Of a stretch of DNA of 35,908 bases, positions 12,035 through 17,006 are shown piece after piece. The stretch spans positions 1 through 35,908 of the IMG/VR virus record IMGVR_UViG_3300031227_000191; one strand, written 5' to 3'. The position numbers and the translations under genes are program-made. A model generated the notes under the pieces. That model did not search any database and had not been told where the DNA came from. It saw only the letters and a program-made list of their open reading frames with translations. Each line of letters begins with the position of its first letter. Positions within the stretch are counted from its first letter, which is position 1. The DNA is from a virus. Its lineage: Duplodnaviria; Caudoviricetes.

Positions 12035-12063
12035 AAGGTAGCACTCTAAAGTTCAAAAGTCAA
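12035..12063 (-). promoter_or_regulatory. sigma70-like promoter for terS (near-leaderless transcript)
   Basis: Minus strand TTGACT-17 bp-TACCTT with extended TG and AT-rich upstream tract; ATG follows 8 nt after the -10 with no RBS. Confidence 0.55.
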
Positions 12064-12589: not shown

Positions 12590-12692
12590 TTTTAAGCTTC
12601 CCCTTACCCAGTTCTCGGGCCACTTGTGGTATTACGGTCTCTTTTAAGCTTCCCCTTACCCAGTTCTCGGGCCACTTGTGGTATTACGGTCT
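12590..12692. repeat. Perfect tandem duplication of 51 bp (period 52)
   Basis: ttttaagcttccccttacccagttctcgggccacttgtggtattacggtct at 12590-12640 and 12642-12692. Confidence 0.95.
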
Positions 12693-13243: not shown

Positions 13244-13306
13244 AATCAAGCCCACTCAGTTACTGTACAAACGGTAACTGAGTGGGACTTCTTATAAGGT
13301 ACCTTC
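13244..13306 (+). repeat. Intergenic hairpin repeat, copy 1
   Basis: aatcaagcccactcagttactgtacaaacggtaactgagtgggacttcttataaggtaccttc; 16-bp stem. Confidence 0.95.
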
Positions 13307-13401
13307 TATCTTATAAAAAACAACCAACTTCAATATCAAAACTATCCCCAGATCAACCGGAGAGAGGATAACCAAGTAACCTTGACAATTAGGAGTAGAA
13401 C

Positions 13402-13601: not shown

Positions 13602-13654
13602 AATCAAGCCCACTCAGTTACTGTGCAAACGGTAACTGAGTGGGACTTCTTATA
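13602..13654 (+). repeat. Intergenic hairpin repeat, copy 2
   Basis: Same as copy 1 with loop GCAA instead of ACAA. Confidence 0.95.
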
Positions 13655-13680
13655 TAGTACCATCTAACTAGGAGTAGAAG

Positions 13681-14197: not shown

Positions 14198-14261
14198 AAT
14201 CAACCCCCACTCAGTTACTGTACAAACGGTAACTGAGTGGGACTTCTTATAAGGTACCTTC
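14198..14261 (+). repeat. Intergenic hairpin repeat, copy 3
   Basis: Near-identical to copy 1 including the aaggtaccttc tail. Confidence 0.95.
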
Positions 14262-14353
14262 GAGAACAAGTAAGATATATTGATATTAGTTTTTTTTCAC
14301 TTTTCACGAGAAATTCAAGCCCGACTAGTCAATCTGCTTGACCTAGACAATTT

Positions 14354-14467
14354 GCCCATAACGGAAACATGTTTGACACCAGTAAGACCACGCTTGGGGA
14401 ACTCTCGGGGTGTAACGTCTTAAACTCATGTACAAACACTGTGGTTCGACTCCATAGGTGGGCACCA
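14354..14467 (+). ncRNA. tRNA-like RNA 1 (acceptor + T arm + CCA; long hairpin replaces D/anticodon arms)
   Basis: GCCCAT/GTGGGC acceptor, A-CCA end, CTGTGG-TTCGACT-CCATAG T arm, internal ACATG/CATGT and TAAGAC/GTCTTA pairings. Confidence 0.7.
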
Positions 14468-14475
14468 ATTTTGAT

Positions 14476-14611
14476 ACTCCCAATAGAAAGGTGCGATGGT
14501 TGAAGGCCTTACAATGTGCAGGGGCAAGCTGACCTAACACACCTTCTTTGCCGTTCAATTAGCTGTTGATCGACAATGCATTTGCCGGTGCAATTCCGGC
14601 AGGGAGCACCA
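14476..14611 (+). ncRNA. tRNA-like RNA 2 (same architecture as RNA 1)
   Basis: (A)CTCCC/GGGAG(C) acceptor, A-CCA end, TGCCGG-TGCAATT-CCGGCA T arm, long internal stem TGGTTGAAGGC/GCCGTTCAATTA. Confidence 0.65.
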
Positions 14612-14623
14612 AGCTAACAATCA

Positions 14624-14800
14624 AAGAACACCGAAGTGTAGCTCAAAGGTAGAGCAGCCACTACAGTGGTGTGTTATGGGTTCGATTCCCAGCCCAAAAG
14701 TGTTCTTAGACCAAGGTGATAGACGATTGCGGCAGGCAGCAACAAAGTGTGCGAACCTACCGTAAAACGGAACAAGCCGACGGGCATGTGAAATCCACCT
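14624..14800 (+). ncRNA. Bipartite RNA A: anticodon-less tRNA-like domain plus conserved 3' domain
   Basis: D arm TAGCTCAAAGGTAGAGC, short hairpin GCCAC-TACA-GTGGT, T arm TGGG-TTCGATT-CCCA, closing stem AAGAACAC/GTGTTCTT; then AAGGTGATAGAC...GGAACAAGCC...ATGTGAAATCCACCT. Confidence 0.65.
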
Positions 14801-14814
14801 ATAGTTTCAATCTA

Positions 14815-15007
14815 TTGACCATAGAATGCTACTGTATAACTCAGCGATAGAGCAGCCGCGGAATAGCGGAAGACTGTGGGTTCAACTCCCACCTACATAA
14901 GATGTTCAAAGGTCAAGTAAGGTGATAGACCAATACAGACAGTAAGGAGACCGCTCCCAAGCTGTACGTATAAGGGAACACGCCAGCAAACATGTGAAAT
15001 CCACCTT
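14815..15007 (+). ncRNA. Bipartite RNA B: paralogue of RNA A
   Basis: D arm TAACTCAGCGATAGAGC, hairpin CCGC-GGAATA-GCGG, T arm GTGGG-TTCAACT-CCCAC, closing stem TTGACC/GGTCAA; then AAGGTGATAGAC...GGAACACGCC...ATGTGAAATCCACCT. Confidence 0.65.
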
Positions 15008-15038
15008 AACTTTGCAAACCCCACCAGCACCCAACCTA

Positions 15039-15177
15039 TATGTGTCCCGAATTGCTGACCCGCCCGACAGACTCTTAGTAATATGTGAGAGTCATCATAT
15101 GAACAGACAGGAAGTCAATGCGACTGACTCAAGCAAAAGGCAGGCTTCATGGTTGGACTCCATGAGCGGGACACGTA
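15039..15177 (+). ncRNA. tRNA-like RNA 5 (acceptor-like stem + T-like arm, no encoded CCA)
   Basis: TATGTGTCCCG/CGGGACACGTA terminal stem, TCATGG-TTGGACT-CCATGA arm, internal hairpins GACTCT/AGAGTC and AGTCA/TGACT. Confidence 0.5.
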
Positions 15178-15255
15178 CTTTAACAAAGGGACCTAGCGAC
15201 CCGGAATCCAGGACACCAAGATACCAAGAGCCGGACAACCGCCAGGTCTAAACTC

Positions 15256-15310
15256 GTCATGGCTGGAAATGTACTACTCCTACTCCGATACTACATTCTC
15301 CAGCCATGAC
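15256..15310 (+). terminator. Strong hairpin closing the RNA cluster
   Basis: gtcatggctgga...tccagccatgac perfect 12-bp stem; poor U-tract. Confidence 0.45.
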
Positions 15311-15321
15311 CCAATTTAGTC

Positions 15322-15761
15322 AAAATCCCACCCTCGGAAAAACCCACCCTCCCTAAAAAAGGGTGGGATCTGTAAGTCGTTGACTATCAACACATCGACT
15401 TTCAAATAAACCCACCCTTTTCGACCTAAAAAGAGGGTGGGTTTACACAACCAGCTTGCATACAACCACTTACAATTCCCAATCCCACCCTACCCACCCG
15501 TTTGACCCTATAAAGTATCGGGAGGCTGTAAAATCACCCTAAATACATATTCTACACACTTATATAGTATATAGTATTAAGAGGGTGGGATTACAATCAG
15601 GAATATTTGAATACCAACGACTTACGAAAACCCCTCACAGAACCCAAAAAATAAAGGGTGGGTAAGTCAGATTTTTAGTCCTTGAATACCAACACTTTAC
15701 CAATCCCACCCTCTATTTTGAAAAACACCAAAGGGTGGGATTTCGGAGAGGGTGGGATTTT
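15322..15761. repeat. Putative replication origin: 12 CCCACCC/GGGTGGG iterons around an AT-rich core
   Basis: Six CCCACCC (15327, 15343, 15411, 15484, 15493, 15705) and six GGGTGGG (15361, 15435, 15583, 15656, 15733, 15750); terminal inverted repeat aaaatcccaccctc/gagggtgggatttt; central tatatagtatatagtatta. Confidence 0.75.
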
Positions 15762-15806
15762 AACCCTGAAATCAAAACGGCCTAGAAACAAACGAGAACA
15801 ACTAAT

Positions 15807-17006
15807 ATGTACAAAATAAAATTAAAAGATATGAAAGTCCCAGCCTACATTTGGACTGAAGACGGAGCCATGGAGGCTGGAACTCTTAGACAGATACAAA
15901 ACCTAAGCATGCTGCGGTCAGCCTTCCACCACATAGTTCTTTGTCCAGATGGACACCAAGGCTACGGGATGCCCATTGGTGGTGTCCTAGCCACAAAGGG
16001 GACAATCATACCTAATGCAGTCGGAGTAGACATTGGCTGCGGCATGTGCGCAGTCAAAACGTCACTCACTGACATCTCCCGATCTGACCTGGAATCAATT
16101 AAAGCTAAAATCAGACTCAAAGTGCCGGTTGGATTCCACCACCACGAGCTGAGAACAATGTGGTCAGGATTCAAATTGGCCCCAACGAGCAGTCCGATAG
16201 TTCAACAAGAACTACAGGCCTCTCATTACCAGCTGGGAACCCTGGGTGGCGGAAACCACTTCATGGAGATCCAGCAAGACCAGGCAGACGGCCGTATTTG
16301 GCTGATGCTGCACTCCGGGTCTCGTAATTTTGGCTTGAAAATAGCCAAATACTACAACACCATCGCAAAAAAAGCCTGTGATATGTGGGACTCAGACATA
16401 CCAAACACAGACCTAGCCTTTCTCCCACTCGATTCTGAAGAAGGTATTGAGTACATAAATGCGATGGAATATGCATTGAAATTTGCTAAGGAATCAAGGA
16501 GACGGATGATGTTTAGTATGATAAACACTTTGAAGTGGTACTATCATGTTGAGCACAAGATTAAAGATCTGGTTGAGTGCGACACAATAATCGACGTCCA
16601 TCACAATTACGCCCGAATGGAAAATCATTTTGGACACAACGTGATGGTACACCGAAAGGGAGCCATATCAGCGCGTAAAGGCGAAACAGGCATCATACCA
16701 GGATCCCAGGGAACACTGTCGTACATCGTCGAGGGACTTGGCAACCCGGACTCTTTCATGTCCTGTAGCCATGGCGCCGGCAGACGGATGAGCAGAACCC
16801 AAGCACGAAAAGAGTTGGACTTCGTCGCCGAAGTAGCTAAACTCGAGGAGACTGGTACTGCCCACTGCCTTAAACACCCAAAGCAGCTCGACGAAGCACC
16901 GGGAGCTTACAAGGACATCGAAGATGTCATGGCAAACCAGAGTGACCTTGTCAAAATAGTAGCAGCCTTGAAACCACTGGCCACGATAAAAAGTGGACCT
17001 GAATAG
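15807..17006 (+). CDS. rtcB: RtcB-family RNA ligase
   Basis: PDGHQGYGMPIGGV, VGVDIGCGM, LGTLGGGNHFME, HSGSR, HHNY, HRKGA, SCSHGAGR, LDEAPGAYKDI motifs. Confidence 0.97.
   Translation: MYKIKLKDMKVPAYIWTEDGAMEAGTLRQIQNLSMLRSAFHHIVLCPDGHQGYGMPIGGVLATKGTIIPNAVGVDIGCGMCAVKTSLTDISRSDLESIKAKIRLKVPVGFHHHELRTMWSGFKLAPTSSPIVQQELQASHYQLGTLGGGNHFMEIQQDQADGRIWLMLHSGSRNFGLKIAKYYNTIAKKACDMWDSDIPNTDLAFLPLDSEEGIEYINAMEYALKFAKESRRRMMFSMINTLKWYYHVEHKIKDLVECDTIIDVHHNYARMENHFGHNVMVHRKGAISARKGETGIIPGSQGTLSYIVEGLGNPDSFMSCSHGAGRRMSRTQARKELDFVAEVAKLEETGTAHCLKHPKQLDEAPGAYKDIEDVMANQSDLVKIVAALKPLATIKSGPE

Follow-up and report, generated by a model that had tools for sequence, protein, structure and literature searches.

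The phage DNA analysed here (the window, 35,908 nucleotides, a linear contig of about 60 % of the genome) encodes two neighbouring RNAs, RNA1 and RNA2, which we read as tRNA look-alikes devoid of an anticodon, likely matured by the host and likely acting, uncharged, as decoys for proteins that grip the top half of a tRNA. We give this reading a probability of roughly 45 %, slightly short of even odds. It is supported by a top half that is intact in two RNAs of unrelated sequence, by a D-loop/T-loop rule that both RNAs obey, by the precedents of T4 RnaC and mycobacteriophage DS6A, by rtcB as the next gene and by a contig without ordinary tRNA genes. Against it count the missing homologue and the weak fold of RNA2, whose lowest-energy form buries the D strand; resting on a single genome, the proposal carries limited weight.

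The sequence of the window is contained in salt-lake metagenome runs. RNA1 was confirmed whole and without difference by contigs of three of the four runs compared, RNA2 whole by two of these, and one further partial contig likewise agrees without difference. No sequence variants were found inside RNA1 or RNA2 among the contigs of other runs; the DNA of the pair is no assembly artefact. RNA runs containing the stretch are not listed, which has no bearing on expression. Genes for head, portal and terminase proteins occupy the minus strand up to position 12056; those of the plus strand are of early type or encode RtcB, a helicase and a DNA polymerase of family A. Terminase relatives of the phage show at most 56 % identity, and many of them are located in Desulfovibrionaceae bins. 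ARAGORN revealed no ordinary tRNA gene on the contig, i.e., in about 60 % of the genome, and such genes could sit elsewhere. No Rfam family is present in the window at Rfam thresholds.

Two CCA-ending RNAs on a 6+6 stack

Each RNA possesses a 12-bp acceptor/T stack, a 7-nt T loop, A73 and an encoded CCA (Table 1; positions in the RNAs are numbered in tRNA style from the T loop). The sequence-only reading had proposed two CCA-ended RNAs of 114 and 136 nt, and its coordinates proved exact, both molecules ending in A-CCA. Its division of the stack into 6+6 instead of 7+5 could be confirmed as well: positions 49-53/61-65 are paired in both RNAs, the sixth pair 48-66 is C-G in RNA1 and U-A in RNA2, and position 7.66 is mismatched in both (A.G and A.A). 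Since 48-66 pairs and position 7 cannot pair with 66, the 6+6 register is better than 7+5. The terminal A-C mismatch noted earlier for one acceptor corresponds to A1.C72 in RNA2, and the alanine determinant G3-U70 is lacking, as stated, with C3-G70 in RNA1 and U3-A70 in RNA2. T arms followed by CCA 12 nt on occur twice in the window and in none of 300 dinucleotide shuffles.

Table 1. Positions of RNA1, RNA2 and the neighbouring features in the window.
Feature	Position	Strand	Description
Stem-loop cassette, third copy	14199-14266	+	68 nt, 16-bp hairpin; RNA cluster follows, no ORF/SD
RNA1	14354-14467	+	114 nt
RNA1 acceptor	14354-59/14458-63	+	6 bp
RNA1 stemless D strand	14360-69	+	positions 10-12 read GGA
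RNA1 long irregular hairpin	14370-14438	+	69 nt
RNA1 T stem	14439-44/14452-57	+	6 bp
RNA1 T loop	14445-51	+	UUCGACU, then A73, CCA
Spacer	14468-14475	+	8 nt, U-rich; RNA1 3' trailer and RNA2 5' leader, last base U-1
RNA2	14476-14611	+	136 nt
RNA2 acceptor	14476-81/14602-07	+	6 bp including A1.C72 mismatch
RNA2 stemless D strand	14482-89	+	positions 10-12 read AGA
RNA2 middle	14490-14582	+	alternative folds: two hairpins, or a single long stem
RNA2 T stem	14583-88/14596-601	+	6 bp
RNA2 T loop	14589-95	+	UGCAAUU, then A73, CCA
Y1	14625-14706	+	arms: D, anticodon (4-nt loop) and T; extended closing stem; CCA-less
X1	14714-14800	+	87-nt three-way-junction RNA, copy one of two
Y2	14815-14916	+	Y1-like; anticodon arm with 6-nt loop, long closing stem, no CCA
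X2	14920-15006	+	second copy of the 87-nt three-way-junction RNA
RNA7	15039-15177	+	11-bp closing stem on T arm, loop UUGGACU, no CCA; z -2.8
Two closing hairpins of the cluster	15189-15249, 15256-15310	+	strong, z -6.3
rtcB (RtcB RNA ligase)	15807-17006	+	PF01139, 366 bits, model 1-425 of 426

RNA1 folds into the acceptor, ten unpaired bases, one hairpin and the T arm (z -3.0; 0 of 200 shuffles), and nearly all of its middle is base-paired. The fold of RNA2 is weak (z -1.0; 26 of 200 shuffles). Its lowest-energy form exhibits two inner hairpins and a partly paired linker; 2.7 kcal must be spent to keep the linker free, and the alternative in which one long stem abuts the T arm is 4 kcal less favourable than the minimum. 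According to these models, the structure of the RNA2 middle is ambiguous. Neither a D stem nor a 7-nt anticodon loop appears in the folds of the two RNAs. Their middles are unrelated, with 934 of 1000 shuffles aligning equally well, and their top halves agree. The unpaired linker, the long irregular hairpin and the shared architecture in spite of differing sequence, all of them claimed before for both molecules, were confirmed, the middle of RNA2 being the one qualification.

An ORF on the minus strand at 14343-14558, overlapping RNA1 and RNA2, was rejected as a gene, being without a clear SD.

The D strand, the probable elbow and comparable RNAs

Judged by their sequence, the linker strands AACGGAAA and AAUAGAAA are D loops of tRNA without a D stem. 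The earlier reading had overlooked this D-loop nature of the linker and its covariation with the T loop, as well as the larger RNA cluster beside rtcB at whose head the pair stands. For comparison we used 678 distinct tRNAs called in the fetched loci, which are partly related, a kinship that inflates the statistics and not the rule. Among them, 625 of the 629 T loops with U55-C56 are accompanied by D-loop GG, and 20 of the 23 with G55-C56 by AG. RNA1, having GG at 10-11 together with U55-C56, and RNA2, having AG at 10-11 together with G55-C56, both obey this rule. At the same positions RNA7 carries GC opposite U55-G56; tRNAs with G56 do not occur in the set, and this third pairing would follow from Watson–Crick logic. 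For AG in RNA2 and GC in RNA7 to stand there by chance, the probability is about 0.004, a value computed post hoc. One natural tRNA-Arg (n=1) resembles RNA2 in having the D loop AAUAGAA together with a T loop that carries G55.

The contacts 18.55 and 19-56 form the elbow of tRNA (PMC4810234), and tmRNA builds the elbow with a stemless D loop (PMC3968760). By the sequence evidence both contacts are available in RNA1 and RNA2, which likely rebuild the tRNA elbow in the stemless manner of tmRNA. The three base combinations, all different and all within a single cluster, indicate that a tRNA elbow would be retainable on a 6+6 stack lacking the D stem.

An A directly following the 18-19 dinucleotide (A20) is found in 37 of 40 tRNA-Arg compared to 41 of 608 other tRNAs. 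The corresponding A at position 12 is present in RNA1, in RNA2 and in all six of six RnaC homologues, making A20 a feature common to the pair and RnaC. For ArgRS, A20 is the main determinant, together with C35 and A/G73 (PMC9976931). Since some tmRNA D strands likewise contain an A following GG or AG, this base may be structural rather than a signal for arginine.

The closest known plan is that of T4 RnaC (species 1 RNA, 139 nt, NC_000866 70908-71046), which has homologues in Tevenvirinae. Like the pair, RnaC is a phage RNA of similar size with acceptor stem and T arm, without D stem and anticodon loop, and with a short purine strand containing GG and then A, followed by a long irregular hairpin; its full order is acceptor, AGGA strand, long hairpin, second hairpin and T arm. 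It differs by a 7+5 stack, U73, a genomic ACA end, GG at positions 9-10 and a location among tRNA genes, whereas RNA1 and RNA2 show 6+6, A73, an encoded CCA and a cluster without tRNA genes. The 3' end of the RnaC gene reads U-ACA, and mature T4 RnaC presumably ends in CCA. Across six Tevenvirinae RnaC genes the fold is well supported: 24 of the 46 base pairs differ in both partners, a number reached by 0 of 500 shuffles, and the AGGA after the acceptor is invariant. A model of these six genes gave no match on RNA1 or RNA2 at E up to 10 with filters off. The minimum-energy fold of RNA2, itself weak, has the arm order of RnaC, and RNA1 has only one hairpin. One 10-mer is common to RNA2 and RnaC (9 of 1000 shuffles; one of three comparisons), at a different place. 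RnaC is expressed and has no known role (PMC3014915, PMC9697503, PMC12685909). Its gene is conserved in about 720 phage records with a covarying fold, yet has no Rfam family, and some records mis-annotate it as tRNA-Met or as a protein.

A second precedent is provided by mycobacteriophage DS6A, which has a TLD-only tmRNA; organellar tmRNAs without CDS exist, too (PMC4131195, PMC11915505). The DS6A TLD (83 nt) resembles RNA1 in its acceptor, its unpaired D strand, its one long irregular hairpin and its T arm. This is in accordance with the likeness to the TLD of tmRNA stated earlier, which was borne out by the tRNA-like top halves and the tmRNA-like stemless D strand. The further suggestion of a possibly new class could not be upheld: because T4 RnaC and the DS6A TLD-only tmRNA have the same plan, the pair constitutes a different build of a plan already known from phage RNAs. 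New in RNA1 and RNA2 are the 6/6 branch, the stemless D loop with its covarying elbow and the tRNA-free cluster beside rtcB.

Canonical tRNAs share with the pair the 12-bp acceptor/T stack, the T loop and N73-CCA, but here the stack is split 6+6; the tRNA family RF00005 gave no Rfam match on either RNA at E up to 10, and ARAGORN called none. Forms other than 7/5 are known as 8/4 and 9/3 allo-tRNAs and as 8/5 and 9/4 tRNA-Sec (Mukai et al., PMC5389517). They resemble the pair in an acceptor branch of 12 bp divided other than 7/5 and differ in being full cloverleaves with anticodons and longer acceptor stems; 6/6 is not among the forms named in the accessible part of PMC5389517. YrlA and Yrn1 are non-decoding mimics of the tRNA elbow, some of them in phages and often near rtcB, and one bacterial Y RNA is cut by RNase P and gains CCA (Chen et al., PMC4201824). 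YrlA is permuted, with the T arm ahead of the D arm, and carries a Ro60-binding stem (GNCGAAN(0-1)G), whereas RNA1 and RNA2 have normal arm order and free CCA ends. The Rfam YrlA family did not match, and Ro60 was not found among the proteins scanned of the genome, which is about 60 % complete. Taken together, RNA1 and RNA2 appear to work like members of the RnaC, tmRNA, YrlA or non-7/5 tRNA families without belonging to any of them.

A homology search with a custom covariance model, recommended by the sequence-only reading, yielded no homologue: RNA1-only and X models were run over 100 sources each and 32 records, and the RNA1-only model also over 151 genomes. The RNA1 model, built from one sequence, is weak and misses even RNA2, and many of the relatives searched are fragments. 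By blastn of the cluster, RNA1, RNA2, X1 and RNA7 against 50,697 phage records only matches of T-arm size were obtained. Pattern scans of the viral collection gave no homologue in 120 of about 630 loci and in 121 of about 380 loci, and a third scan, of which all 39 loci were examined, gave acceptor pairing in none. A descriptor scan of 197 loci of capsid, terminase and RtcB relatives returned 12 matches, none of them a homologue (two from the window's own record, one tRNA-Met, the remainder without CCA); the same scan of 80 genome loci returned no homologue either. Loci L030 and L066, once taken as analogues, were dropped because they are likely tRNA-Thr halves at att sites. The literature covered, which includes few subscription papers, contains no description of a phage RNA of the 6/6 stemless-D kind. 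This build has been found in one phage so far, and because no homologue was found, within-family covariation and a proof of selection are absent.

Several other small RNAs were noticed during these searches. Two of the T-arm-sized blastn matches were examined and are unannotated T-arm-bearing elements between tRNA genes, at L324 670-740 (phage Bongo) and L325 690-770 (phage Blueeyedbeauty). In L023 (T loops at 1442, 1876 and 1915, plus strand), L118 and L380 (minus strand), the anticodon loop of tRNA-Leu or tRNA-Glu genes harbours a tRNA-like RNA with a CCA end; in L118 and L380 this insert, 77 nt long, is itself D-armless and contains AACGGAAA. Further D-armless CCA-ending mini RNAs, missed by ARAGORN, are located in phage tRNA clusters of L096 and L133 (65 nt, minus strand) and L099 (71 nt, plus strand). 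The terminase relatives L020 (about 910-595, minus strand) and L022 (about 650-335, minus strand) share a conserved non-coding block of about 320 nt without Rfam match.

Proposed mode of action and competing readings

Substrates of RNase P are recognized by a 12-bp stack, a T loop, RCCA and U at -1. All of these are present in the sequence, and maturation of RNA1 and RNA2 by RNase P is a fair prediction. The cluster would be transcribed as a single plus-strand precursor, in which RNase P is predicted to cut at a distance of 12 bp from the T loop, with cleavage sites at 14354 for RNA1 and at 14476, or the base before it, for RNA2; the earlier cut in RNA2 is conceivable as U-1 can pair with A73 beside A1.C72. 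Trimming of the 3' ends should halt at the encoded CCA. The elbow would then be rebuilt by contacts of D strand and T loop in the absence of a D stem, and a long helix takes the place of D stem and anticodon arm, leaving RNAs that can neither decode nor present an anticodon loop to be cut. Without anticodon or G3.U70 they would remain mostly uncharged, and A20 together with A73 may give them a face similar to tRNA-Arg. In the last and weakest step, the RNAs would soak up tRNA-attacking defence enzymes, and the neighbouring RtcB would reseal those tRNAs that are still cut. Defence systems attacking tRNA include PARIS, retron Eco7 and toxSAS.

The position of rtcB as the first ORF downstream of the cluster, on the same strand, fits into this picture. 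However, its adjacency proves little because it is 1.2 kb away from RNA1 and RNA2 and 13 of 16 RtcB-bearing viral loci are without a nearby tRNA.

Non-decoding tRNA look-alikes of phages have been known since T4 RnaC and are still without a function; action as decoys against tRNA-targeting defence would be a hypothesis for the whole class. Such RNAs could also serve as host-processed scaffolds free of an anticodon.

The tRNA-like top might instead be a handle for processing or stability, with the inner helix doing the work as an antisense or protein-binding element, as in P1 C4, or with several handles serving to cut a polycistronic RNA. The agreement of the tops above unrelated middles is what such a handle would look like, the pair heads a 1-kb cluster of structured RNAs, and the phage RNAs C4 and M3 are processed by RNase P (PMC11143913). 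We nevertheless regard this as unlikely. No complement to the middles above chance was found in the transcripts of the window, i.e., in 60 % of the genome and no host, 112 and 175 of 200 shuffles being as good; the middle of RNA1 is almost wholly paired; and a rebuilt elbow with A20 would seem to exceed what cleavage needs.

Quite improbable in our view is charging of the RNAs by a host synthetase able to dispense with an anticodon arm (LeuRS, or ArgRS via A20/A73), with a role as sponges for EF-Tu or as amino-acid donors off the ribosome. Both RNAs contain A20 and A73, but ArgRS requires the anticodon base C35 as well (PMC9976931). For leucine, the first four pairs of RNA1 combined with A73 point towards tRNA-Leu, which accounts for 22 of the 35 tRNAs with that acceptor in a set enriched by the search pattern, and E. 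coli tRNA-Leu is active without anticodon and variable arms (PMC9976931); position 48, however, is engaged in the sixth T-stem pair, which makes the 15-48 pair needed by LeuRS unlikely. EF-Tu reads the 12-bp branch (PMC5389517). The A1.C72 mismatch of RNA2 speaks against charging.

Still less probable is an origin from tmRNAs cut down to the TLD; such remnants would bind to SmpB and attenuate trans-translation, in the manner of the TLD-only DS6A gene (83 nt). The three-way plan and the stemless D loop are the same (PMC3968760), although of the tmRNA trait of a stemless D loop with a long helix at the place of the variable arm only the RNA1 fold is a clear example, RNA2 being ambiguous. The site opposite to and upstream of the terminase genes is occupied by a tmRNA in the relatives L022 (Rfam 115 bits, 1009-1463) and L184 and by a tmRNA-like 3' end in L187; overall, ARAGORN detected any tRNA or tmRNA in 13 of 180 capsid and terminase loci, many of which are too short to include the site. 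In contrast, RNA1 and RNA2 lack what the phage tmRNAs compared have, namely G3.U70, a 7-bp acceptor, a D strand ending in (U)CGAC and an RGAC connector preceding the T arm. Even the reduced DS6A TLD keeps G3.U70, the 7-bp acceptor and the D strand UCGAC, with GCAC as connector. Standard and permuted tmRNA covariance models did not match at E up to 10, and neither a tag frame, whose absence had been claimed before, nor pseudoknots were found; the DS6A TLD itself is also missed by the tmRNA model at gathering score. With motifs and model match lacking alike, RNA1 and RNA2 were rejected as tmRNA.

Intron-containing tRNA genes whose exons RtcB joins, or decayed and dead ones, are very unlikely indeed: RtcB is a tRNA ligase, the RNAs are orphans and some internal deletions pass the ARAGORN threshold (1 of 1680 for RNA1, 5 of 1680 for RNA2), but the passing deletions give inconsistent isotypes (Glu; Ala, Cys), as expected from a fixed good top half, no intron family matches, no bulge-helix-bulge occurs in 49 and 2782 near-optimal folds, and the D stem is missing likewise in both RNAs with 6+6 and elbow kept by different bases, unlike decay. 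Matches to tmRNA or to intron-containing tRNAs, which the sequence-only reading had named as refuting its view, were thus looked for by models (E up to 10), deletions and the bulge-helix-bulge motif, and none was found.

The RNA cluster upstream of rtcB

RNA1 and RNA2 head about 960 bases (about 1 kb) of structured non-coding sequence upstream of rtcB. The cluster is preceded by a stem-loop cassette of 68 nt with a 16-bp hairpin, copies of which are located at 13244-13311, 13602-13669 and 14199-14266, each behind a short plus-strand ORF. These cassettes separate transcription blocks and are likely terminator or promoter cassettes.

Y1 scores 24.3 bits for the tRNA model, under the gathering score of 29, and Y2 likewise stays under the threshold with 20.1 bits. 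In the D loop of Y2, GA replaces GG. Both are closer to the arm order of (Deinococcus) Yrn1 than RNA1 and RNA2 are. The copies of element X, X1 and X2, each directly follow one of these CCA-less tRNA-like RNAs. Between the two copies 6 of 19 pairs differ on both sides, which is matched by 12 of 500 shuffles, the structure having been derived from the same two copies; the ends are invariant and the middle is compensatory. The element has a 3-nt bulge that may be succeeded by tandem G.A pairs, a pattern reminiscent of a kink-turn or k-junction. Element X has no Rfam match, and no homologue was found by blastn, by patterns in the viral and genome collections (0) or by covariance model. Ribozyme readings of the element were considered and have no Rfam support. 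RNA7 was detected by the RNA1-only covariance model at E 4.8. An ORF at 14994-15251 on the plus strand was rejected as a gene, having neither a clear SD nor a Pfam match.

Extending the decoy reading, the whole cluster might be an all-RNA module of counter-defence that neutralises tRNA-attacking host defences, a proposal we consider rather unlikely. RNA1 and RNA2 would be its 6/6 decoys, with a tRNA-Arg-like elbow, a free CCA and no cleavable anticodon loop, and would be made in bulk together with the CCA-less elbow mimics Y1, Y2 and RNA7, with X1/X2 and with the RtcB ligase. If this were true, T4 RnaC would represent an independent solution of the same kind, and a 50-year-old riddle would become testable likewise.

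The DNA separating the RNA cluster from rtcB (15319-15764) contains six or more CCCACCCT boxes arranged in inverted pairs, which may be an origin or an array of operators. An exact 51-nt tandem duplication is located at 12590-12692, in non-coding sequence where the gene blocks diverge. Further downstream, among uncharacterised ORFs of the plus strand (18852-24136), a ThiF-family gene (20706-21395) and a gene for a protein weakly like PRTRC protein A (22982-24136) possibly form a ubiquitin-like conjugation set.
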